A stretch of DNA of 48,520 bases, taken from positions 1 through 48,520 of the forward strand of contig CAZJUS010000002.1 in NCBI GenBank assembly GCA_964549355.1. The letters run 5' to 3'. Origin of the DNA: Candidatus Undinarchaeota archaeon (lineage in GTDB: Archaea; SpSt-1190). Each line of letters starts with the position of its first letter. Within the stretch, counting starts at the first letter, position 1. This document shows, in pieces, positions 1-48,520 of the stretch. Below the pieces are notes generated by a model. That model had not been told where the DNA came from. It searched no databases and worked only from the letters and a program-made list of their open reading frames with translations. Made by a program: the position numbers and the translations under genes.

Positions 1-42
1 AACGCTACGGCGTTCGACCACGTGGCCTGCCTCCGGCAGGCC
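1..42. repeat. Double-hairpin element, copy A (truncated by window edge; reads outward on minus strand)
   Basis: The reverse complement GGCCTGCCGGAGGCAGGCCACGTGGT + AACGC-CGTA-GCGTT aligns with 48469-48512. It has an 8-bp hairpin, a CCACGTGG palindrome and a second tetraloop hairpin. Confidence 0.5.
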
Positions 43-54
43 GAACAGTTTTGC

Positions 55-84
55 GCTTCGCGGCTCAGCAGGCAGAGTAGTTTT
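55..84. repeat. 30-nt conserved motif, copy A (gcttcgcggctcagcaggcagaGtagtttt)
   Basis: 29/30 identical to 39273-39302, which lies upstream of tRNA-Lys. In minus orientation it is preceded by the hairpin cggcttt-tacg-aaagccg (about 102-119). Confidence 0.55.
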
Positions 85-186
85 TGGCCAAGCTTTGCGA
101 ACGGCTTTTACGAAAGCCGGCAACGGTGGCCATCCCTCGCCCCGCTCCGCGGGCTCGGTGTTCACTACCCCCGTGTCAAGGAACAG

Positions 187-195
187 TTTTATTAA
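187..195 (+). promoter_or_regulatory. TATA-like box (ttttattaa) upstream of the FKBP gene
   Basis: AT-rich box centred about 25 nt upstream of the GTG at 216, which is leaderless-type spacing. The reverse strand also reads as TATA-like (cttaataaaa). Confidence 0.35.
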
Positions 196-2997: not shown

Positions 2998-3519
2998 TTA
3001 TATGAGTGTTTTTTGGCGGTATTCGGGTTGGCCTTTCCTTATGAACAGCTTTTCCACATCAAAGCACTCGTCCAGAATTTCCCTCCACTGCGAAACGCCT
3101 GCAACCTTTGACACATCCGTTGCGAAATCGCCCACGTAGGCTAAAAAAATTTCCGGTTTTTCATGGCCGCCGTAGTCCATATCCTCGTCCCATCCGATTT
3201 GTATTGTCACCGCTTCTATTTCATCCCTTCTGATATTGTACGATTGCCCCACCTCCCCCACTCTGAAGCTGTGGAATTTTTTTGGGTCGAAGACAAACCC
3301 CCTCGCCTGCCGGTGCATATCGTATTTTTCCAACTGCAGTGCTCTGAGATGCTCAAACACCTGCATCAGCTTGTCTCTGAACTTCTCGAAATAAGTTGCG
3401 TCCAGCCCTCCCTGCCGGTATTCGGAAAAACAAGGCATGGCCTCTGCCATTGCATCCAGCTCCCCGGGGGCAGGGGCGGGAAGATATCCGCCGTCCATGG
3501 AAAGGCGTCCGCCGTCCAT
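2998..3519 (-). CDS. Hypothetical protein (173 aa), no recognisable family
   Basis: Long ORF with its own TATA-like box (ttttaaaaata, about 3537-3547 read on the minus strand) about 23 nt upstream of the ATG. The N-terminus is duplicated (MDGGRLS-MDGGYL). Confidence 0.6.
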   Translation of the reverse strand: MDGGRLSMDGGYLPAPAPGELDAMAEAMPCFSEYRQGGLDATYFEKFRDKLMQVFEHLRALQLEKYDMHRQARGFVFDPKKFHSFRVGEVGQSYNIRRDEIEAVTIQIGWDEDMDYGGHEKPEIFLAYVGDFATDVSKVAGVSQWREILDECFDVEKLFIRKGQPEYRQKTLI

Positions 3520-4192: not shown

Positions 4193-4471
4193 ATGGTTGA
4201 AGTTCAAAAACCAATTTTACACTATCCCCGCTTGGACACTGTCCTGATGATTGAAAAATTCATTAAGGAAAACAGCGGGGACTTCAAGAAGAGCAAGTTG
4301 TGGAAAAGTCTGCCGAAAAAAGTGATGTATCAAACTTTTTGTGTGGTTATTGATTATCTTATTGAATCCGGAAAAGTTGGAGTGGACCGCGAAGGTCATA
4401 TTGCCTGGATTTACAACCCCGAACTGGTAAAAAAATACACTGCCGGGCAAAATTTGCTTTGGAGGTCATAG
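4193..4471 (+). CDS. Hypothetical protein, possible antitoxin partner of the downstream RelE-like gene
   Basis: 92 aa from a low-GC segment. The stop at 4471 is 1 nt before the GTG of the next ORF. The role is inferred from position only. Confidence 0.45.
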   Translation: MVEVQKPILHYPRLDTVLMIEKFIKENSGDFKKSKLWKSLPKKVMYQTFCVVIDYLIESGKVGVDREGHIAWIYNPELVKKYTAGQNLLWRS

Positions 4472-4472
4472 T

Positions 4473-4762
4473 GTGGAACAACCATCGCGGCTGGTTTTCG
4501 CTGACGCCAAACTCAAAAAAGCCTTTGAAGACCTGAAAAATTCTACAGAAGAGGGTAAGCGACTCTTCCGATTCCTAATACAGGCATTTGAAAATTTGGA
4601 GAAAAATGCTCTCAAAAGTATCAAATTGATAATTGTTGGAAGTATAATCTCCCCAATGCATGGAGATTGATTTATTCAGTCGCAAGAGACGAGGTCATAG
4701 TAATAAGTATTGTCTTGGAGTGGTTGGATCATAAAAACTACGAAAGGAGATTCAAATACTGA
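4473..4762 (+). pseudogene. RelE/ParE-superfamily-like toxin gene, frameshifted
   Basis: The N-terminal part is in frame 0 (MEQPSRLVFADAKLKKAFEDLKNS...ENLEKNA). The C-terminal part is in another frame (4592-4762): KYQIDNCWKYNLPNAWRLIYSVARDEVIVISIVLEWLDHKNYERRFKY. Confidence 0.55.
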
Positions 4763-4801
4763 ACTGCACAAGTGTTTAATACTTCCGCGCTTTAGCTTTC
4801 C

Positions 4802-5887
4802 GTGGTCCAGCCCTTCACCTACGCCGTCGGCACCTTCATCGGCATCGGGGTCCTGATACTGCCCATGCTCTTCCAGCAGGCGGGCATCATACTCGGGACT
4901 GCAGGGCTTCTCTTCTCTGCGCTGCTCCTTTTATTCCTGGCATTCATAGTCATGGATTTGATCAGGCTGGCCAAGAAGGACCTGCCCGGCTCGGTGGAGC
5001 AGTATCTTGGAGGGGGCAGGCCTTTGGTCCGCATATCCTTGGCGGTCTTCACCTACGGTGCGCTGGTGGCCTATGTGGTGGGGGCGGGCAGCCAGATGGC
5101 GGCGCTCGCCGGAGGCATGGGGGCCCAGTACTGGGGGGCCCTTTTCTTTGTGCTCGCAGCCATACCAGTCCTCCAGGACAGCAGGACTTTCGGCAAGCTT
5201 GCAGTATACCTTTCTGTTGTCCTCCTGCTCACCCTTGCCCTCCTGATTCCCATGAACATCTCGGCATCGGCATTTTCACCGCCCGCCTTCGGCAGCTGGA
5301 CCGTTGTGCCCTTCCTGCTTTCGGTCTCCATATTCTCCCTTTTCGGCCACACCTCAATCCACAGGATAAGCAGGATGTGCGGGAAGGAGCAGGAGATGAA
5401 GGCCAAGTTTTTCGGCGCATTCTTCCTTTCACTAATAATTTATCTTTTCTACACAACAACCTCAAGCTCAGTCGGGCCGATGGGCGATTTAAGCACAGTC
5501 TCCCTCCTCTTCTATTACGGGCCCTTCATCAGAACCCTGATAACTCTGGTGGCTGTCCTGGCTTTCTACACTTCTTTTGTCAACATTTCCTTGGATTTCG
5601 TTAAGCCCCTTGAGGCGTCCAGGCGCATGCAGTCGGGGGCAGCCCTTTCCCTCCTTTTCTTCCCGACGGCGGTCCTCTATGTCCTGGTGCATCAGTTCGG
5701 CATAATGACCCTGGCTGAGCTGGTGGCCAGGTTCTGCGGTGTCGGCATTGTCATATTTGCCATGACGGCCTGCGTGGCGCATTTCAGGGCTTCCAGAAAG
5801 CACAAAACCGCCATCCCCGGATGGCTGTCGGCAGTCCTGGCTTTTGTGTTTGTGGCCGTTGCAGCCTTCAACATTTTACCGGTCTGA
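4802..5887 (+). CDS. Amino-acid permease-like membrane transporter
   Basis: About 11 predicted hydrophobic segments. The N-terminal GTFIGIGVLILP motif resembles Trp/Tyr-permease and Aa_trans families. It has a GTG start with tttaata about 24 nt upstream. Confidence 0.7.
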   Translation: MVQPFTYAVGTFIGIGVLILPMLFQQAGIILGTAGLLFSALLLLFLAFIVMDLIRLAKKDLPGSVEQYLGGGRPLVRISLAVFTYGALVAYVVGAGSQMAALAGGMGAQYWGALFFVLAAIPVLQDSRTFGKLAVYLSVVLLLTLALLIPMNISASAFSPPAFGSWTVVPFLLSVSIFSLFGHTSIHRISRMCGKEQEMKAKFFGAFFLSLIIYLFYTTTSSSVGPMGDLSTVSLLFYYGPFIRTLITLVAVLAFYTSFVNISLDFVKPLEASRRMQSGAALSLLFFPTAVLYVLVHQFGIMTLAELVARFCGVGIVIFAMTACVAHFRASRKHKTAIPGWLSAVLAFVFVAVAAFNILPV

Positions 5888-6605
5888 GCCCCAATTCAGT
5901 TGCCCAATCCCTTGTTTTCTGCCTCAGCCCGCCCGGCGTTCCTTTCCAGTCAATCCAGACTTCCTCCGGCTTTGGCATGGTTTTTTCTATCATCTGCTCC
6001 AGCATTTCCCGCGTCAAAAAATCAGAGGCATATTTTGGGCAGATGTGGCCGAAATTCATGCCTTCCAGCACTTTTTTGGTAAAATACGGTGTGTAGTGGG
6101 TTCCTCCTACGCCAATCACCGAACTGCCTTCCAGCTCCGCATCAAGCAGATGGACTATCACATCGGCTGCAGTCCGGACAGCTTCCCTGTCCTGCCACTG
6201 TTTTTCCGAGCTTCCAACCTCGACAAAGACAATGGGCACCCCGAAGCTCGGCCCGTGGTGGGTGGCTTCAAGGGAGACTTCATACGGCAGGCTTCTGGCG
6301 GCTCTCAGCCTCTCAAATTCCCTGACAGCCTCGCTGACATAAAGGGCAGGATTGATTGAAAGCACCCCCGGCTCCCCGCCCATGCCGGCGGGCCCGAAGT
6401 TCCCCGGCGTGTGCGCAGTCAGGGTCGGCCTGCCTGAGGCGCTCTTGTGCGAGCTTGCCACTATGACCAGATCCGCAGTCAAGTCCAGGCCCTCCAAATC
6501 AACAATTTTTGAATTAAGCAGGTCGACTTCAGCCCGCCCGTCCAGGGCTCCAGCGATGTTCCGGCTTGCCAGGTTTTCCGCAGAGCCGACTACGATTTTC
6601 TTCAC
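5868..6605 (-). CDS. dtdA: D-aminoacyl-tRNA deacylase, archaeal type
   Basis: SHKSASGRPTLTAHTPGNF...GG.P and LEATHHGPS are motifs typical of the DtdA family. Confidence 0.85.
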   Translation of the reverse strand: MKKIVVGSAENLASRNIAGALDGRAEVDLLNSKIVDLEGLDLTADLVIVASSHKSASGRPTLTAHTPGNFGPAGMGGEPGVLSINPALYVSEAVREFERLRAARSLPYEVSLEATHHGPSFGVPIVFVEVGSSEKQWQDREAVRTAADVIVHLLDAELEGSSVIGVGGTHYTPYFTKKVLEGMNFGHICPKYASDFLTREMLEQMIEKTMPKPEEVWIDWKGTPGGLRQKTRDWATELGLRPVKC

Positions 6606-7849: not shown

Positions 7850-7910
7850 GGGCTCCAGCGATGTTCCGGCTTGCCAGGTTTTCCGCAGAGCCCACCACTA
7901 TTTTCCTCAT
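7850..7910 (-). pseudogene. Orphaned 5' end of dtdA (codons 1 to about 20)
   Basis: The minus strand reads ATG AGG AAA ATA GTG GTG GGC..., giving MRKIVVGSAENLASRNIAGA. Positions 7850-7892 are identical to 6545-6587 inside intact dtdA. Confidence 0.75.
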
Positions 7911-11533: not shown

Positions 11534-12668
11534 ATCCCTGCTCCACCGCAAAATCAGGACCTTCCTGACGACGCTGGGAATTGTCATAGGCGTCGCCCTC
11601 GTTTTCAGCTTGATAAGCTTGAATGCAGGAATGAAGGAGAGCCTTGTCGAGCAGATTAATATGATAGGGGCTGACATGATAACCATCACCACCAAGCTGG
11701 TTCCCGGCATGGGGTTTGCCGGCGGAAAATTCACTTCAGACGACCTCGAAGCAGTCGAGCGCGTATCCGTTGTTGATTCCGTCATAGGCATGTATTACAC
11801 AGGTGCGGAGATAAAGGTCAGAGACGAAACCATATTCAAGTCGGTCATTGGCATTGAATCCGGCAAAATAAGCCAGCTCATGGAGATGTACTCGGGCTAT
11901 GGTGTGAAAGAGGGGCGGTTCATCAACGACAATGAAAGGGGCAAGGCAGTCATAGGGCCGTTGTTTGCAGAAGACCACAATATCGGAGTGGGCAATCGGA
12001 TTATTATTGACGGACGGACGTTCAGGGTGGTCGGCATAACCAAACCGGTCGGCAATGGAGATGACGACAGGAATATCATGATGAGCGCGGAGGACTTGTG
12101 GGAGCTTACAGGAACAGAAGATGAATTCACTATGATTCTGGGCAAAGTTCATGAGCTTAGGATTGACCCCATCGAGCGGGCGCTCAAAAAGCAGAGGGGC
12201 TCGGAGGACTTTGAGATTATGACCTCCGAGAATATGATGGACACCATGAACAATGTCCTGTCCGTTGTGAATGCAGTATTCCTGGCAGTGGCGTCAATCA
12301 GCATACTGGTCGGCAGCATTGGAGTGGCAAACACCATGTATGTTTCCGTCCTGGAAAGGGTCCGCGAGATTGGAGTCTTGAAGTCAATCGGAGCCACAAA
12401 ACTTCAGATTCTGCTGATGTTTGTATTTGAAGCGGGGCTGGTCGGCATGGCCGGAGGGGTTGTCGGTGTTGTGCTGGGATATCTGATTGCCTTTGGTTTT
12501 ACATATGCAGCAACCGCTTCAGGCTTCATTGGCATACACCCTGTAATAACCCCCTCTCTTTTCCTGATTTCTGCGGGCATTTCCTTTGCAGTGGGGATTG
12601 TTGCCGGATTTCTGCCGGCCCGATGGGCCGCCAATCTTGAGCCGGTTGAGGCCCTCCGCTACGAATAG
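11484..12668 (+). CDS. ABC transporter permease, MacB/FtsX family
   Basis: The topology is TM1, a large extracytoplasmic domain, then 3 C-terminal TM helices. The N-terminal KSLLHRKIRTFLTTLGIVIGV is typical of the family. The start codon is uncertain (TTG 11484). Confidence 0.88.
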   Translation: MLSLGIINLEIGALVIKSLLHRKIRTFLTTLGIVIGVALVFSLISLNAGMKESLVEQINMIGADMITITTKLVPGMGFAGGKFTSDDLEAVERVSVVDSVIGMYYTGAEIKVRDETIFKSVIGIESGKISQLMEMYSGYGVKEGRFINDNERGKAVIGPLFAEDHNIGVGNRIIIDGRTFRVVGITKPVGNGDDDRNIMMSAEDLWELTGTEDEFTMILGKVHELRIDPIERALKKQRGSEDFEIMTSENMMDTMNNVLSVVNAVFLAVASISILVGSIGVANTMYVSVLERVREIGVLKSIGATKLQILLMFVFEAGLVGMAGGVVGVVLGYLIAFGFTYAATASGFIGIHPVITPSLFLISAGISFAVGIVAGFLPARWAANLEPVEALRYE

Positions 12669-12696: not shown

Positions 12697-12894
12697 ATGA
12701 AAGTCGCTGTTGAGCTTGAAGGCAAATCCAAACAGGTCGAGTTCTCCGGAAAAACCGTGAAGGATTTGATGGAGCACCTGGACCTTGTATTGGATGAATA
12801 CATCCCCATACTGAACGGTTCTGTGGTGACTGAGCTGGAGCTTCTGTCCGAAGGTGCGTCCGTGAAATTTGTCCGGGTGTGGTCCGGTGGCTGA
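12697..12894 (+). CDS. ThiS/MoaD-fold ubiquitin-like sulfur carrier (ends in -GG)
   Basis: 65 aa with the C-terminal VRVWSGG followed by a stop. A tatttaa box lies 22-28 nt upstream. It is adjacent to a tRNA thiolase gene. Confidence 0.75.
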   Translation: MKVAVELEGKSKQVEFSGKTVKDLMEHLDLVLDEYIPILNGSVVTELELLSEGASVKFVRVWSGG

Positions 12895-19003: not shown

Positions 19004-20893
19004 GTGGCCGAAGGCAAAAAGGGAGCAGTAGGATCCACAGTCGCACCTCCAGACCAGAATGCCGATTTTCTCACGCAAATCCAGAACACATTCGAGCGGG
19101 GGGTCGTGAGCGCCGAAGTGGACCTCGGAGGGCTCTTTGCCCAGGATGACAAAGGCGGGGGGGGCAGTGTCAAGACCCTTTGGGGGGAGGCCACCCGCAT
19201 CACCACAGGTCCGGCGGGCGCCCAGGAGCAGCTCCTGAAGAAAATGAAGACTATTGCAGATACCTTCGGCGGCAGATTCACAGCCCATGCGCCGATGCAG
19301 GCCGACCCTTCCGAGCTCATGTCCATCAGCAGGACCCGGGCCGCCAACATACTGAAGACTTCAATAAAATACTCTGACAAAATCGGGGCCTCCGTCCTCA
19401 CTGTCCATCCCATAGGGCAGATGCAGTATTACTTCATCGAGCCGTTCACAAATCAAAGGATGCCGGTGCAGAGTCCATTCATGCTGGCCAGAGACGAAAA
19501 AGAGCTTGACAATCTTTTTAAAAAGTACAAAGTGAAGGACTCACTCCTCAAGAAGCAAATCAAAAGTGAATGGGAAAATTTCATTCAGGTCCTCCCGACA
19601 TTCTTCGCTGAAAAATACGGCGCCCAGGCTGCTCAGCTTTTTGACACCTTTGCCATGAGGGCTGCCCAGAAAAATGTCCTGGGAATCGTCGACAGGTTCG
19701 GCGGGGATGTTGACAAGGCATATGATTACGTAAAAAAAGCCAGCGTCCATTACGATCCTCGAGTCGCTCAAAGCATGGAGAACGAGATGCTGAAGATAAA
19801 AGGCAACAACAAGTATTTGGCGAAGCTCAAGAGCGACAGAAGGACTATAGACAGTCATCTGAAAACGCTGTGGCCCAAGATTGCAATAACCACCCTTGAG
19901 CCTATTGATGAGCAAGGGCGCCCGGTCACACTGCCCGAGAATTTCAACTCTTTATCGCCTTCTGAGCAAAGAGAGGTGCACCGCAATGCACGTTTGAAAG
20001 TGGTGAAGAAAGGGTGGGCTGCAATCACCTCGCAGGGCAGGTTCGGGCCTTTTGATGAAGCCATCAAGGATATCGAGCATTCCGTCAAGGACACTTTCCG
20101 CAGATTGCTCTCAGACAAGGAAGTCAAAAAAATACTGAGGAAGGGCAAATTGAAAATCGGCATTGAGAATCTCTTCCCTGCCGTGCCTGAGAAGGGATAC
20201 ATGCAGGGGTTCGCCCACTTTTACAAGCCGGAGCACATGGCCAAGCTGGTGAAGGATGTGAGGGCGATTGCGAGGGCGAACGGCATCCCCGACGATGCCA
20301 TCACCATCACTTTTGATGTGGGCCATGCAGCGGCTTCAGGCGTAAAGCCCAGCAAATTTTTGGCGGAGCTGAAGAAGCGCGGTGTCAAGCCGGGCCATGT
20401 CCACCTGGTCGGAGGCCCCGGATACGGCCACGGCCATATCGCATGGGGCGACTGGCTTGATGAGGTGAGCAGGATGGACCCCGGCATAATCGCCAAGCTC
20501 ACCGACATGGGAGTCATTAATATTGAAGGCGGTGCCGGCCTCTACGACACCGAGGTAACACTCAACGCCATGTGGAACGAGGGTGTGCCCCTTGAAGCTT
20601 TGATGGCTATGGCGGGCGGACCCCAGCCAAGCATGGGGGATCTGCGGTATGCCGGATTCAAAGCTCCGCCGTATTGGGCGGAAGTTGCGGAGAGGTTCCG
20701 CGGGACTGGGTTTGCCCAGAGAGCATTTTATTCCTTCAGCACGGAAACAATGGGGGCCCCCATGCGGACGGCGTTCGGTTCATATTCCATGCCGGGCATG
20801 TACGGCGGGGGATATTCACTGGGTCCCGGGCTCACCCCCCGCATATGGGGCGGAGCCCAGCCTCTACTGTATTCGGCGAAGAAAAAAGGTTGA
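19004..20893 (+). CDS. Large xylose-isomerase/Endo-IV-like TIM-barrel protein with a long internal insertion and a Gly/Tyr/Pro-rich tail
   Basis: Metal-ligand-like motifs appear in family order: TAHAPM, LTVHPIG, IGIENL, FDVGHAAASG, HVHLVGG..GHGH. About 230 aa lie between TVHP and IGIEN. The tail is SMPGMYGGGYSLGPGLTPRIWGG. Confidence 0.6.
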   Translation: MAEGKKGAVGSTVAPPDQNADFLTQIQNTFERGVVSAEVDLGGLFAQDDKGGGGSVKTLWGEATRITTGPAGAQEQLLKKMKTIADTFGGRFTAHAPMQADPSELMSISRTRAANILKTSIKYSDKIGASVLTVHPIGQMQYYFIEPFTNQRMPVQSPFMLARDEKELDNLFKKYKVKDSLLKKQIKSEWENFIQVLPTFFAEKYGAQAAQLFDTFAMRAAQKNVLGIVDRFGGDVDKAYDYVKKASVHYDPRVAQSMENEMLKIKGNNKYLAKLKSDRRTIDSHLKTLWPKIAITTLEPIDEQGRPVTLPENFNSLSPSEQREVHRNARLKVVKKGWAAITSQGRFGPFDEAIKDIEHSVKDTFRRLLSDKEVKKILRKGKLKIGIENLFPAVPEKGYMQGFAHFYKPEHMAKLVKDVRAIARANGIPDDAITITFDVGHAAASGVKPSKFLAELKKRGVKPGHVHLVGGPGYGHGHIAWGDWLDEVSRMDPGIIAKLTDMGVINIEGGAGLYDTEVTLNAMWNEGVPLEALMAMAGGPQPSMGDLRYAGFKAPPYWAEVAERFRGTGFAQRAFYSFSTETMGAPMRTAFGSYSMPGMYGGGYSLGPGLTPRIWGGAQPLLYSAKKKG

Positions 20894-20897
20894 TGAT

Positions 20898-21767
20898 ATG
20901 GAAATAAGAAAAAAACAAGATGTGGTTGACGAAGCGGCCAAAAAGCAGCTTCGTGCGGAGGACGTTTCAAAGGTCTATGACTTCACGGCTGAAGTCGCAA
21001 AAAAATTCGGCACTTTCATAAAGGCGGTCGTTGTCTTCGGCTCCTTTGCAAGGGAGCGGAAGGAGGCCAGCAACGATATTGACATAATGGTCATAGTGGA
21101 CGATTCCTTCGCCCCGCTCGACCAGGCCCTGCTGATTGCCTTCCAGAATGAGATGGGGAGGCTGATGAAGGATTACCCCCAGATGCACATAAACTCAGTC
21201 ACCATAAGCCAGTTCTGGGACTCGGTCCGGAGAGGGGACCCTCTGGTCATTTCAGTGCTGAAGGACGCCATACCTGTTTTCGATTTGGGCTTCTTTTCAC
21301 CGCTCCAGAGGCTGCTGATGCAGGGCAAAATCAGGCCCACTCAGGAGGCGGTCAATGTGGCGGTGTCCCGTGCGTTCTTCAACCTCAACAGCTATTCGCA
21401 CATAGTGAACAACGCCCTCCTGGCCCTGTACAACGCAGCGGTCGAGGCAGCCCATGCAGCGGTCATGTCCTACGGCAGGATTCCGGGCTCCCACAGGGAG
21501 GTGGCCGGCCTGCTCAGGGAAACTGCAGTGAAGGACGGCAAGCTGACGGAGGAGGACGTGAAAGTTTATGAGGAGCTTTTTGACACCATGAAAAAAATTG
21601 AGAAGGGGGAGCTAGATTATATAAAACCCGACCGCTTGGAAGAGATCCACAAGAAAACTGTGGATTTCGTAGGCAAAATTGAAAGCTCAATCAACCTTGA
21701 AGCTTTGAAGCAGGCCACAGAAAAGCAGGAGCCTCCCGCCGACGAATCAAAGACAAAGGAAGTGTGA
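20898..21767 (+). CDS. Nucleotidyltransferase (Pol-beta/MNT-type) + HEPN fusion protein, paralogue 1
   Basis: The NTase motif is GSFARERKEASNDIDIMVIVDD. The C-terminal helical domain carries an R-x4-H motif (GRIPGSH). Confidence 0.75.
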   Translation: MEIRKKQDVVDEAAKKQLRAEDVSKVYDFTAEVAKKFGTFIKAVVVFGSFARERKEASNDIDIMVIVDDSFAPLDQALLIAFQNEMGRLMKDYPQMHINSVTISQFWDSVRRGDPLVISVLKDAIPVFDLGFFSPLQRLLMQGKIRPTQEAVNVAVSRAFFNLNSYSHIVNNALLALYNAAVEAAHAAVMSYGRIPGSHREVAGLLRETAVKDGKLTEEDVKVYEELFDTMKKIEKGELDYIKPDRLEEIHKKTVDFVGKIESSINLEALKQATEKQEPPADESKTKEV

Positions 21768-23062
21768 AGATGGTTAAAGCGACACCAACAGCCAGAGGCC
21801 AGAAACAGATTGAAGTCAAGGACGGCTCCAGCCCCCTGGAAGCTGAAGATAAAGCTTTTGAGCAGAAGGAAGCGAAAAGACGGATTTCCAGCAGGCAGGT
21901 CGAGGCAGCCAAGAAGAAGCAGAAGACCTTCTACAAAATGAAGATGAAGGCCGTCGAGCGCTTCTCCGTCGCAGCCCGCCAGAAGCTGGGCGCCATGCTC
22001 AAGGGCGTTGCGGTAATTGGCAGTCTGGCCCGCGGGGACTTTGTGCCCGGCTCCGATATAGATGTCCTCGTTGTAGTTGATGACACCAAGCGCGAGGTCC
22101 CGAGCGAGCTGAAGGAGAAGCTCCTGGCCATGCTCAACGACATGGGCAGGAAGATAGACAAAAAAATGCAGGTGCAGATCCACACCCTCACTGAGATGTT
22201 CCAGTTCGCCAAGGAGGGCGACAATATAATCTACAATTTCCTCCGCCACATGAAGATAGTCTATGACGGCGGCGTGCTGACGCCTTTCACCCGCCTGCTC
22301 AAGACCGGCGAAATAAAGCCCACTAAGGAGGCTATGATGCGCAGCCTGGACGGTGCGGAGTACTATATGAAGAAAATCGAGCAGTACATAGAGTGGATTC
22401 TTGAAAGATATTACCGCGGAGTTACGTGGTCCGCCAATGCCTACATTATGAGTCTGGGCGAGAGCCCCGCTGCGGTGCCGGAGATTCCCATAGTCCTCCA
22501 GAGCAAAGTTGATGAAGGCCTCCTGCCCCCGGAAATTCCAGCCATTGCAGCAGAGACCATCAAAGTTTTCAAGGCGGTCGAGCATGGGGACGGAAAGCCC
22601 GAGCTGAAAGTGGCTTTTGAGCTTGAACCCAAAGTCCGCCATTTTATTGCAGTCCTGAAGAAGGAAGTGGTGGGCTCTCTGGTCAGCAAGAGCGTCGGCA
22701 CTGCTGTCAAATCCAAAATCAAAACCATGCCTAAAATCATATTTGAGTTCAGCAAGCACAGGGCTTTTGTCTGGCTGCTGGACGGGGGCATCTATATGGC
22801 AGTCTACCGCGGAGGCAAGCTCAGCAAGGTCTACAAGGCGCAGATAAAGGACGGGGTAGTGGCCAGCTTCAAGGCCACCAAGAACGACGCCCTCTTCAAG
22901 GCCATGGAGCAGAGCTCCCTCAAGCCTTTGGTAAACGGCAAGCTCATCAAGAAGATTTACAGCAAGCTGCCCGCCGATGTGAAGGCTCCGGTGAAGAAGC
23001 TGGCGGTTGAATACCCCGGCAGGGCCATGCTGGATTTGACGGGCTCAATCAAGCTGGCGTAA
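21764..23062 (+). CDS. Nucleotidyltransferase + HEPN-like fusion protein, paralogue 2, with a roughly 130-aa C-terminal extension
   Basis: The NTase motif is GSLARGDFVPGSDIDVLVVVDD. It is collinear with paralogue 1 (LKTGEIKPTKEAM vs LMQGKIRPTQEAV), but the R-x4-H position reads LGESPAAV. It has a GTGA overlap with the upstream gene. Confidence 0.75.
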   Translation: MKMVKATPTARGQKQIEVKDGSSPLEAEDKAFEQKEAKRRISSRQVEAAKKKQKTFYKMKMKAVERFSVAARQKLGAMLKGVAVIGSLARGDFVPGSDIDVLVVVDDTKREVPSELKEKLLAMLNDMGRKIDKKMQVQIHTLTEMFQFAKEGDNIIYNFLRHMKIVYDGGVLTPFTRLLKTGEIKPTKEAMMRSLDGAEYYMKKIEQYIEWILERYYRGVTWSANAYIMSLGESPAAVPEIPIVLQSKVDEGLLPPEIPAIAAETIKVFKAVEHGDGKPELKVAFELEPKVRHFIAVLKKEVVGSLVSKSVGTAVKSKIKTMPKIIFEFSKHRAFVWLLDGGIYMAVYRGGKLSKVYKAQIKDGVVASFKATKNDALFKAMEQSSLKPLVNGKLIKKIYSKLPADVKAPVKKLAVEYPGRAMLDLTGSIKLA

Positions 23063-39160: not shown

Positions 39161-39233
39161 CGGGCCCGGGGGGATTCGAACCCCCGGCCACTGGGTTAAA
39201 AGCCCAGCGCTCTACCGACTGAGCTACGAGCCC
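39161..39233 (-). tRNA. tRNA-Lys (anticodon UUU), no encoded CCA, no intron
   Basis: The minus strand reads GGGCTCG TA GCTC AGTCGGTA GAGC G CTGGG CTTTTAA CCCAG TGGCC GGGGG TTCGAAT CCCCC CGGGCCC G. This folds as a full cloverleaf with one G-U pair in the acceptor stem. Confidence 0.93.
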
Positions 39234-39272
39234 GAACTTTCACGAAGTTCGATCACGGTGCCTGCTTCGCCT

Positions 39273-39302
39273 GCTTCGCGGCTCAGCAGGCAGATTAGTT
39301 TT
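39273..39302. repeat. 30-nt conserved motif, copy B (gcttcgcggctcagcaggcagaTtagtttt), upstream of tRNA-Lys
   Basis: 29/30 identical to 55-84. It lies 39 nt upstream of the mature tRNA 5' end when read on the minus strand. Confidence 0.55.
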
Positions 39303-39305
39303 GAT

Positions 39306-47815: not shown

Positions 47816-48456
47816 ATATGGCGCAGGAATCCCGCGACTCAACCGAAACGAATGAAATCCGGCTGTTCAGCAAGTGGTCTTTCAGCGGCATCAAAATCCG
47901 CGACCCCAGCCTGAAGGCATACATCAATCTGCGCCCCATCATCACCCCCCATACCGGAGGCAAATGGCAGAAGAAGATGTTCGGCAGGGGGAAGTACAAT
48001 ATTGTTGAGCTTTTTGTGAACAAGCTTATGGTGACCGGCCACAGCAAAGCCGGCAAAAAGCATGTATTCACAAGCGGGCGCAACACCGGCAAGAAAATGA
48101 TGGTTTTGTCGCATGTTGAAAGCGCCTTCAGCGCCATCGAGAAAAAAACACGCCAGAACCCAATTCAAATTCTCATCCGTGCGGTTGAGAATTCAGCACC
48201 CCGCATGGAAATCACAACGGTTGAATACGGCGGTATGCGGACGCCCGTTGCAGTCGATGCTTCGCCTCTCCGCAGACTCAGCTTGGCAATGTCTTTCCTG
48301 ACCAAAGGGGCAGCCAGGAAGGCCAACCTGAAGAAAACCACACTCACGCAGGCCATTGCACAGGAGCTTATTGCAGCGGCCAGCAACGATTCGTCCAACA
48401 GCTTTGCAGTGGACAGGAAGACCATGATGGAGAAGCAGGCCGAAGCCAGCCGGTGA
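47812..48456 (+). CDS. rps7: 30S ribosomal protein uS7
   Basis: Contains [23 protein letters not shown] and [17 protein letters not shown]. Confidence 0.95.
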
Positions 48457-48468
48457 TTAATCAGCCCC

Positions 48469-48520
48469 GGCCCGCCGGAGGCGGGCCACGTGGTGTCGCT
48501 TCGTTAAGCGACGGAGAAGC
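48469..48520. repeat. Double-hairpin element, copy B (12 nt after the rps7 stop, runs into the window edge)
   Basis: GGCCCGCC-GGA-GGCGGGCC ACGTGGT GTCGCTT-CGTT-AAGCGAC. It aligns with the reverse complement of 1-42 and shows a compensatory base-pair change. Confidence 0.5.

Follow-up and report, generated by a model that had tools for sequence, protein, structure and literature searches.

Both ends of the stretch analysed here, 48,520 nt of contig CAZJUS010000002.1 (assembly GCA_964549355.1; hereafter the window), carry the same pair of adjoining hairpins in inverted orientation, which raises the question of what this element is and what placed it there. We found that it belongs to a family of short modules in which a covarying double hairpin is tied to insertions that are bracketed by repeats and polymorphic between strains, with the second hairpin lying beside the repeat. 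In the reading that we consider somewhat probable, the module is the terminal arm, proximal to the attachment site (att), of small non-autonomous integrative units or gene cassettes that are inserted, frequently in tandem, in the 3′ termini of tRNA genes and some protein-coding genes. Related contigs are cited below by L numbers and module copies by capital letters.

Two inverted copies at the window ends

The reverse complement of positions 1-42 reads GGCCTGCCGGAGGCAGGCCACGTGGTCGAACGCCGTAGCGTT, and its counterpart at 48469-48512 reads GGCCCGCCGGAGGCGGGCCACGTGGTGTCGCTTCGTTAAGCGAC. As the first-pass annotation had noted from the sequence, only positions 5 and 15 differ within the first 26 nt, and as these are partners in a single base pair (T-A in one copy, C-G in the other) the change is compensatory; the second hairpin, of 7 bp, also lies at the matching place in both copies, with a CGTA loop on the left and a CGTT loop on the right. 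The degenerate 26-mer matched the window exactly twice, and never matched 100 dinucleotide-preserving shuffles with up to three mismatches allowed. When folded as single-stranded DNA (ssDNA), both copies formed two hairpins separated by 7 nt (-18.6 and -18.7 kcal/mol, z about -5.6). Contig L002 adds 2 nt leftward of the window, with which hairpin 2 of the left copy is complete (CGAACGC-CGTA-GCGTTCG). The central palindrome CCACGTGG occurs within the window in the two end copies only; its proposed invariance holds between these two and fails across the family, where the linker consensus is (A/C)CGTGGT with the variants CCGTGAT, CCGTTGC and ACATGGT. The copies in L169 have the linker ACGTGGT, preceded by a different base.

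That both copies point outward is correct as geometry but not as a property of a 48-kb unit, the interior being ordinary chromosome. The geometry is an assembly-breakpoint effect, with variants diverging just beyond hairpin 2: the end copies face outward because assemblers stop where variants diverge or where repeats collide in assembly graphs. Contig ends tracked module boundaries in three cases, as the window and L002 end at most 2 nt apart and Logan contig L179 ends at the A-rich box of copy B. Inverted repeats at contig ends should therefore be treated with caution, since they can be breakpoint artefacts and not element termini.

A double-hairpin module with further copies

Further copies were sought outside the end pair and were found, both in the window and in related contigs, so that the element is not restricted to the two ends. 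Covariance model R1, applied to the window, returned four copies, at 1-53 (-), 100-166 (-), 39231-39303 (-) and 48458-48514 (+). These occupy three loci of the 48.5 kb, each of them a junction at a tRNA or a gene end, and R1 found no copy in the ~45 other intergenic regions of the window. The module is ~58 nt long and its layout is constant: an A-rich box (AAAAnTAnTC-like), an 8-bp GC hairpin 1 with a G[G/A]A triloop in most copies, the 7-nt linker, and a hairpin 2 of 7 bp capped by a CGTN(N) loop. The window copies are composed as follows.

1-53 (-), copy A, cut by the window end and 3′-truncated (R1 62.3 bits, E 2e-19; DNA fold z -5.6)
52-43 (-), A-rich box of copy A, AAAACTGTTC
42-24 (-), hairpin 1 of copy A, GGCCTGCC-GGA-GGCAGGCC
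23-17 (-), linker of copy A, ACGTGGT
16-1 (-), hairpin 2 of copy A, CGAACGC-CGTA-GCGTT[CG], the last CG from L002
55-84 (-), truncated B-type half module, AAAACTACTCTGCCTGCTGAGCCGCGAAGC (A-rich box, 5′ arm of hairpin 1 and loop)
100-166 (-), copy E, degenerate, found by hairpin scan (R1 43.8 bits, E 5e-13)
154-139 (-), eroded hairpin 1 of copy E, GGA loop
127-120 (-), linker of copy E, ACCGTTGC
119-102 (-), hairpin 2 of copy E, CGGCTTT-CGTA-AAAGCCG
39231-39303 (-), copy B (R1 56.7 bits)
39302-39293 (-), A-rich box of copy B
39292-39259 (-), hairpin 1 of copy B, TGCCTGCT...AGCAGGCA
39258-39252 (-), linker of copy B, CCGTGAT
39251-39233 (-), hairpin 2 of copy B, CGAACTT-CGTGA-AAGTTCG
48457-48514 (+), copy C (R1 66.3 bits; DNA fold z -5.6)
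48457-48468 (+), start of copy C, TTAATCAGCCCC
48469-48487 (+), hairpin 1 of copy C, GGCCCGCC-GGA-GGCGGGCC
48488-48494 (+), linker of copy C, ACGTGGT
48495-48512 (+), hairpin 2 of copy C, GTCGCTT-CGTT-AAGCGAC

The half module at 55-84 is identical to 39273-39302 at 29 of 30 positions, and copy A appears to be nested into it or joined onto it. Copy E is followed by TTCGCAAAGCTTGG, and an identical extension follows copies H and J. The final G of hairpin 2 of copy B is at the same time G1 of tRNA-Lys(UUU) (39161-39233).

The family comprises at least 16 distinct copies, of which four lie in the window and the others in related contigs of Altiarchaeota. Contigs encoding the same proteins, together with one pattern scan of metagenome contigs, supplied copies D, F, G, H, I, J, K, X and Y as well as two further ones in a related species. 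The scan yielded five real loci among the matches listed; most matches were due to chance, the N{0,1} of the pattern accepting any base. The pattern CCGGAGGCNGGCCACN{0,1}GTGGT gave 31 single matches in genome contigs, where the species is not represented, all of them in high-GC bacteria and none in a hairpin context. In viral contigs the general module pattern, the rps7 core AGGCCGAAGCCAGCCGGT and the C-type hairpin 2 gave chance matches or none, and no virus-borne copy was evident. The repeat was found in one Altiarchaeota lineage only.

Some copies are composite. At 1850-1950 of L123, hairpin 2 of copy J is common to an inverted hairpin 1 on the other strand (GGCTGTCC-GGA-GGACAGCC), forming a tail-to-tail composite that is bracketed by a 14-nt repeat, CGCTTCGCG(C/G)(A/C)AAA, identical at 12 of 14 positions. 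The motif AAGCTT(TT)GG lies directly 3′ of many tRNAs (L115, L123, L129) and of hairpin 2 in copies A/H, E and J, and may be a shared core or trailer sequence.

Hairpin 2 adjoins repeats of gene ends

The copies sit at insertion junctions by tRNA genes or by the 3′ ends of protein-coding genes (rps7 and a membrane-protein gene). In nearly every copy with a known flank, hairpin 2 and a copy of the target sequence are 0-5 nt apart, a rule that we denote module to core; the exceptions are J, with its shared hairpin 2, and H, for which no target repeat could be detected. Repeats of the target end, 10-42 nt long and often ~20 nt, bracket most units and regenerate the stop codon or the tRNA 3′ end, and it is precisely at these junctions that strains differ, the unit being present, absent or exchanged. 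The targets are as follows.

Copy B, hairpin 2 faces the 5′ end of tRNA-Lys
Copy C, hairpin 2 faces the rps7 end
Copy D, hairpin 2 faces the membrane-protein gene end (reverse strand)
Copy F (L115), faces a tRNA 3′ end and trailer, flanked on each side by an exact 42-nt repeat of which there is also a partial third copy
Copy G, hairpin 2 faces a tRNA 3′ end
Copy I (L135), faces one of four copies of a tRNA 3′ end
Copies X and Y (L098), exact 21-nt repeats of a tRNA-Met 3′ end around a ~150-nt unit with inverted modules at both ends

Copies D, G, I and Y point toward the gene; C, F and X are turned the other way. The same tRNA-Lys that adjoins copy B is found in L169 with a TATA box ~50 nt upstream and no module. 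Identical hairpin types recur at unrelated targets, that of C at rps7 and that of G at a tRNA, and those of B, F and X at three different tRNAs. The identity of hairpin-2 types at different targets also rules out a hairpin 2 built from local target sequence as a palindromic footprint.

Other hairpin-rich short inserts, unrelated in sequence, hold equivalent positions in the arrays of L115, L135 and L169. One such family (GGGGTTTAGAAAGG...GGGGCG[G/A]AGCCCCTTCT) lies between tRNA 3′-end repeats, adjoining a repeat, at 3284-3400 (-) of L115 and at ~4318-4445 of L135. Behind each displaced rps7 end in L169 stands a third insert type, GTGCC-GGA-GGCAC ... CGGAACC-GCGCAGG-GGTTCCG (11592-11650 and 12769-12825), which has the GGA triloop in common with hairpin 1 of the module. 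Intron-containing tRNA genes stand beside modules at 62-157 of L129, 4215-4317 of L135 and ~3470-3620 of L115; ARAGORN misses all three, the first two were detected by the Rfam tRNA model, and that of L115 was recognised by eye.

Strain and species variation at the rps7 site

The right end of the window stops within a duplicated gene end.

48429-48456 (+), functional 3′ end of rps7, GGAGAAGCAGGCCGAAGCCAGCCGGTGA (...EKQAEASR*), the target or core that is repeated after the module
48513-48520 (+), start of the duplicated rps7 end, GGAGAAGC...

Past this point L001 and L038 read ...GCGAC GGAGAAGCCAGCCGGTAA AGCGAC..., in which GGAGAAGCCAGCCGGTAA is a second copy of the rps7 end including its stop codon, and then continue with a TATA-like box and the start of EF-2. 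In L037 and L039, from a different strain, a fuller rps7-end copy, GGAGAAGCAGGCAGAAGCCAGCCGATAA, stands after the module; it encodes EKQAEASR* with synonymous changes and leads into a 1.45-kb cassette of low GC content. Behind the cassette come a second 61-nt module, identical to the first, and a short rps7-end copy. The cassette-free variant (L038, L001 and the window) has one module copy. The last base of the window is the point of divergence, where ...GGAGAAGC continues with AGGCAGAAGCCAGCCGATAA and the 1.45 kb in L037 and L039 versus CAGCCGGTAA in L038 and L001.

The same site varies among species. In L172, a more distantly related Altiarchaeota genome, rps7 and EF-2 are separated by a 28-nt spacer with no module, which may be the ancestral state. 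There is also no module in this spacer in L168 (GCA_018221005.1), the closest named metagenome-assembled genome (MAG), whose S7 protein is 90% identical; there, two paralogous hypothetical genes, each after a similar ~40-nt upstream sequence, fill the spacer (4239-5363). In L169-L171 (S7 75% identical) the site holds an array of at least two cassettes, each with a small open reading frame (ORF) and a nucleotidyltransferase gene and each ending in an in-frame copy of the last 17-18 S7 codons, followed by a GC-hairpin insert, an rps7-end copy, a module and an exact rps7-end copy. Across the rps7 loci there are three to eight rps7-end copies, all with stop codons. A comparison of the L169 cassettes showed the cargo to be 54% identical and the module-bearing 3′ region to be ~91% identical outside one indel.

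The displaced rps7 ends of the related species differ from the functional one by seven substitutions, all synonymous, including AGC to TCA. Because they differ only synonymously, gene ends carried in by elements are favoured over simple duplication, and the array pattern fits elements with their own replacement gene end that integrate repeatedly beside the gene. The last 18 nt of rps7 are identical between the window (48439-48456) and L169 (10604-10621) although the S7 proteins are 75% identical, and L168 and L172 use other codons at the rps7 end. This suggests that the rps7 gene end itself was horizontally replaced.

The junction upstream of the FKBP gene

A second hypervariable junction lies at the left end, upstream of the FKBP gene.

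160-195 (+), constant flank of the hypervariable junction

Three alleles were found here, one with copy E, the half module and copy A (window and L002), one with copy D (L003 and L004) and one with copy K (L005), and all three part at one base, immediately left of GTTCAC (160-165). Positions 175-195, GTCAAGGAACAGTTTTATTAA, are the displaced 3′ end, stop codon included, of a gene for a 391-aa membrane protein that is found upstream in L003. In that contig the final 21 nt of the membrane-protein gene occur on either side of copy D; the two occurrences are identical at 19 of 21 positions and both keep the frame and the stop (VKEQFY*).

Covariation and the level of recognition

The conservation of structure while sequence drifts had been taken to suggest selection at the RNA level, or else at that of a cruciform or protein site. 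As regards a multi-copy covarying element, this is borne out. In the model-based alignment of the 16 distinct copies, 92.6% of cells were paired and 13 of 15 pairs had changed on both sides; the observed covariation was reached by none of 500 shuffles, and slid controls paired in 23-40%. A MAFFT alignment of 11 copies, made before any model, gave 91.5% paired cells and again 13 of 15 double-changed pairs, with no shuffle equalling the observed value and slid controls at 25-42%. The pairing of hairpin 1 played no part in copy selection, and six of its eight pairs covary. In all six copies that were folded, a pair of distinct, perfect hairpins formed, joined by a single-stranded linker of 7 nt (z -3.6 to -7.9).

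Selection at the RNA level, on the other hand, is argued against by the near absence of G-U pairs, which make up 3 of 230 cells (1.3%) in the 16-copy alignment. The strand of the module relative to the adjoining genes is mixed (8 sense and 5 antisense among 13 copies). Taken together, the scarcity of G-U pairs, the mixed orientation, the palindromic linker and the C-G[G/A]A-G loops of hairpin 1 point to recognition at the DNA level. The C-G[G/A]A-G triloop is of the d(GCGAAGC) type, an unusually stable DNA mini-hairpin.

Searches for RNA genes agreed with the earlier failure to match the element to tRNA, 5S, SRP or RNase P RNA. Rfam at the gathering threshold returned tRNA-Lys as the single match in the window; at E ≤ 1, on seven module-bearing loci, it returned tRNAs and two chance plastid matches and nothing at the modules, including the end copies, where ARAGORN likewise found no tRNA. 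The proposal that the copies are 5′ parts of a stable RNA gene did not survive extension of the right flank, as L001 and L038 show the rps7-end duplicate and the EF-2 promoter and start and no RNA gene; these contigs rule out a tRNA, split-tRNA or stable-RNA gene past the window end. A terminator module, also proposed, is not supported by the sequences downstream of hairpin 2 in the copies read (CT..., GGAGAAGC, GGGCTCG, GGTCAAT, GTGAGAAT and TGCCCCC), none of which is a T-run. Bridge-RNA (IS110) and tRNA-half mimicry are unsupported by size, repeat structure and the Rfam tRNA model.

A proposed role as an arm of small integrative units

How would such modules arise beside gene ends? If the module is the att-proximal arm of small integrative units, a trans-encoded recombinase would read the two hairpins and the palindromic linker as DNA, either extruded or single-stranded, and strand exchange would take place in the core adjoining hairpin 2. 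Successive integrations beside a gene would push older gene-end copies downstream, and recombination between directly repeated modules could gain or lose cassettes. The variable repeat length and the synonymous divergence of the repeats speak for conservative site-specific recombination in a shared core, as against the two-ended inverted units and the presence of both orientations, which speak for a transposon or casposon-like process.

Tyrosine-integrase elements, among them archaeal and bacterial genomic islands, share much of this. Their direct repeats correspond to the 3′ part of a tRNA (T-arm to end) or to the end of a coding gene, which is reconstituted, as are the tRNA 3′ ends in L098, L115 and L135 and the rps7 and membrane-protein ends, which keep frame and stop. 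They also form tandem arrays at one site, with displaced gene ends that are synonymously diverged. In contrast to these elements, the units described here go down to ~60 nt and the orientation of the module is not fixed relative to the gene, and no integrase gene was seen in any unit or flank examined. To our knowledge, a covarying double hairpin beside the core is not a described feature of att sites.

Several points weigh against an att-arm role. The enzyme is hypothetical, as neither the window nor any other available locus revealed a gene for a recombinase, a transposase or Cas1. The repeats measure 10, 13, 21, 21, ~20-27, 28 and 42 nt, which does not fit a single transposase with a fixed stagger; both module orientations relative to the target gene occur, which is unusual for tyrosine integrases; and the mini units (~60 nt plus core) are too small for double-stranded circles. 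A flanking target repeat was undetected at copy B, on the 5′ side of tRNA-Lys, and at copy H in L129. Part of the copies came from a scan that demanded a paired hairpin 2, so that the pairing of hairpin 2 is partly selected, and the census of at least 16 copies is a lower bound. Finally, the data fit both a module that is part of the inserted DNA and a preferred target that was duplicated, and do not separate the two.

A bolder version of the att-arm reading, which we put forward tentatively as possible, is that module and gene-end core together form the cassette-borne recombination site of an undescribed archaeal gene-capture system, analogous to integrons and unrelated to attC/IntI, in which a structure-specific recombinase would insert cassettes. 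The cargo would be nucleotidyltransferase pairs, secreted proteins and empty 60-nt units, possibly inserted as ssDNA; insertion would occur into the 3′ ends of essential genes (rps7, tRNAs), the gene end would be regenerated and arrays would grow on the gene-proximal side. The nucleotidyltransferase pair in the cassettes may be a toxin-antitoxin system. Integron cassettes, including those of archaea (PMC9668308), are alike in forming arrays of promoterless small cassettes behind a fixed site and in carrying a structured element, like a recombination site, whose structure is conserved over its sequence, with diverged cargo and conserved sites. They differ in that attC is one long imperfect hairpin (R''L''/L'R') with extrahelical bases, as opposed to two hairpins and a linker, and in that their core is 7 nt long, where the repeat here is a ~20-nt gene end. 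Of the attC boxes GTTRRRY/RYYYAAC, a GTTAAGC was found in hairpin 2 of copies C, G and I only and is absent from A, B, D, E and F, no RYYYAAC partner occurs in the module copies, and no integrase was found in the window.

Alternative explanations

The module could instead reside in the host as a recombination hot spot (a secondary att or target site) and be foreign to the incoming DNA; cassettes and mini-inserts would land beside it and duplicate it along with the gene end, and it would spread passively. We judge this unlikely. In its favour, the L037 cassette is flanked by identical 61-nt copies in direct repeat, the arrangement expected of a duplicated target; the triplet of gene end, module and gene end is kept at rps7 in two species; and no recombinase was found in any unit. 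However, the same types of hairpin 1 and hairpin 2 occur at unrelated targets, the inverted modules inside the 21-nt tRNA repeat of L098 resemble element termini, and more distant relatives have the same targets without modules.

Rather doubtful, in our view, is a transposon-type miniature inverted-repeat transposable element (MITE), casposon-like or other, with the module as terminal inverted repeat and the flanking repeats as target-site duplications from a staggered cut. A process of this type is favoured by two-ended inverted units and by the presence of both orientations: in L098 and L129 each end bears a module, the two being inverted with hairpin 2 on the outside, and in several cases the repeats are near 20-22 nt. 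Casposons, moreover, target the 3′ ends of tRNA and translation genes such as aEF-2, form tandem arrays that share target-site duplications of 14-35 nt, and have terminal inverted repeats that they can leave behind singly (PMC4779613). L098 combines inverted terminal modules with a 21-nt repeat, and arrays share repeats. Unlike in casposons, repeat length is inconstant within one family (10-42 nt), the termini are hairpin pairs conserved in structure and not in sequence, and the rps7 repeats differ only synonymously, including a three-base serine codon switch that would be unexpected in a fresh duplication. The array copies in L037 and L169 are direct and not inverted, L129 has no flanking repeat, and neither a Cas1-solo nor a PolB gene was seen in the sequence available, no genome-wide search having been made. 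As for generic MITE features, they are present in L098 and as insertion polymorphism at rps7 and FKBP, but many units are one-ended and of variable repeat length.

Among the three options originally proposed, a repetitive extragenic palindromic (REP)-like intergenic element came nearest. REP/REPIN elements (RAYT) and the PATEs of the insertion sequence (IS) family IS200/IS605 are likewise short, GC-rich and palindromic, show compensatory changes, sometimes occur as inverted pairs and probably act as DNA hairpins. Tested against their features, the module departs from them: four copies at three loci in 48.5 kb, all at insertion junctions, are not an extragenic dispersal; the paired modules in L129 (G/H) and L098 (X/Y) have differing stems that are not mutually complementary, unlike REPINs; and there are flanking target repeats and no GTAG-type 5′ tetranucleotide. 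In IS200/IS605 PATEs both end hairpins lie on one strand and the target is not duplicated, whereas two-ended units with inverted modules and 10-42-nt repeats were found here.

A functional RNA (a leader, trailer, processing signal, stabiliser or insulator, perhaps mimicking a tRNA arm for RNase P or RNase Z) is improbable. It would be in keeping with the 8 of 13 copies that are sense to the adjoining tRNA or operon, with copy B abutting the mature 5′ end of tRNA-Lys, with the strong covariation and with a TTCGT in the loop region of hairpin 2 that loosely resembles a T-loop. Yet five copies are antisense, few paired cells are G-U, neither Rfam nor tRNA models match the modules even at E ≤ 1, there is no T-run, and the other intergenic regions of the window have no copies; the association with repeats and the strain indels would also go unexplained. 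Chance resemblance or a contig-end assembly artefact, to which the position of both copies at the very ends of the window might point, can be dismissed, given that none of 100 shuffles matched and that the same sequences lie inside independent contigs from other samples and assemblers.

The module thus resembles integrase att regions, casposons, integron cassettes and REP/MITE elements and lacks at least one testable defining feature of each. Membership was rejected on the features tested for intrinsic terminators (T-run), attC (hairpin form and boxes), REPINs (dispersal and complementarity) and PATEs (strand and duplication). We therefore place the module outside every named family; in kind it belongs with the structured termini or att arms of small integrative elements.

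Host lineage and content of the window

Among named S7 proteins, the closest belong to MAGs of Candidatus Altiarchaeota (best identity 90%), and contigs with the same proteins occur in JGI metagenomes and in an assembly named "DOMB18". We take the samples with matching proteins to be Guaymas Basin sediments, so that the module clade would be mostly of Guaymas type. The window encodes FKBP, FtsZ, SecE, Spt5, L11, RtcB, TFB, a hydrogenase/Mrp-like cluster, rpoB''/B'/A'/A'', L30e, NusA, S12 and S7, and no recombinase, transposase, integrase or other mobility gene was found in its 48.5 kb. Because these are ordinary chromosomal genes and no recombinase or transposase accompanies them, the 48.5 kb between the end copies is not a mobile unit, and a composite element between inverted repeats was rejected on the same housekeeping content. 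Altiarchaeota are reported to have the highest MITE density among archaea and the highest median IS content of any archaeal phylum (PMC11602168, PMC13343696), which provides context and not proof.

Two further features of the window were noted. Two neighbouring large genes at 20649-23062 have nucleotidyltransferase (NTP_transf_2/Polbeta) domains, and small members of the same superfamily are found in the rps7-site cassettes of the related species. A 60-nt direct repeat, 93% identical (6545-6604 versus 7850-7909), corresponds to the first ~20 codons of a minus-strand gene resembling D-aminoacyl-tRNA deacylase; its two copies differ mostly by synonymous changes and enclose ~1.3 kb with two hypothetical ORFs. 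This looks like another insertion that duplicated a gene end, without a hairpin module.

Implications

If the module is indeed the arm of small integrative units, it would provide a sequence handle on how uncultivated Altiarchaeota gain and lose small gene cassettes at essential genes that nonetheless stay intact. The covariance model, combined with the module to core rule, may serve to locate integration hot spots and cassette arrays in fragmented metagenomes, to explain the recurring contig breaks in Altiarchaeota assemblies, and to seek the recombinase by phylogenetic co-occurrence.

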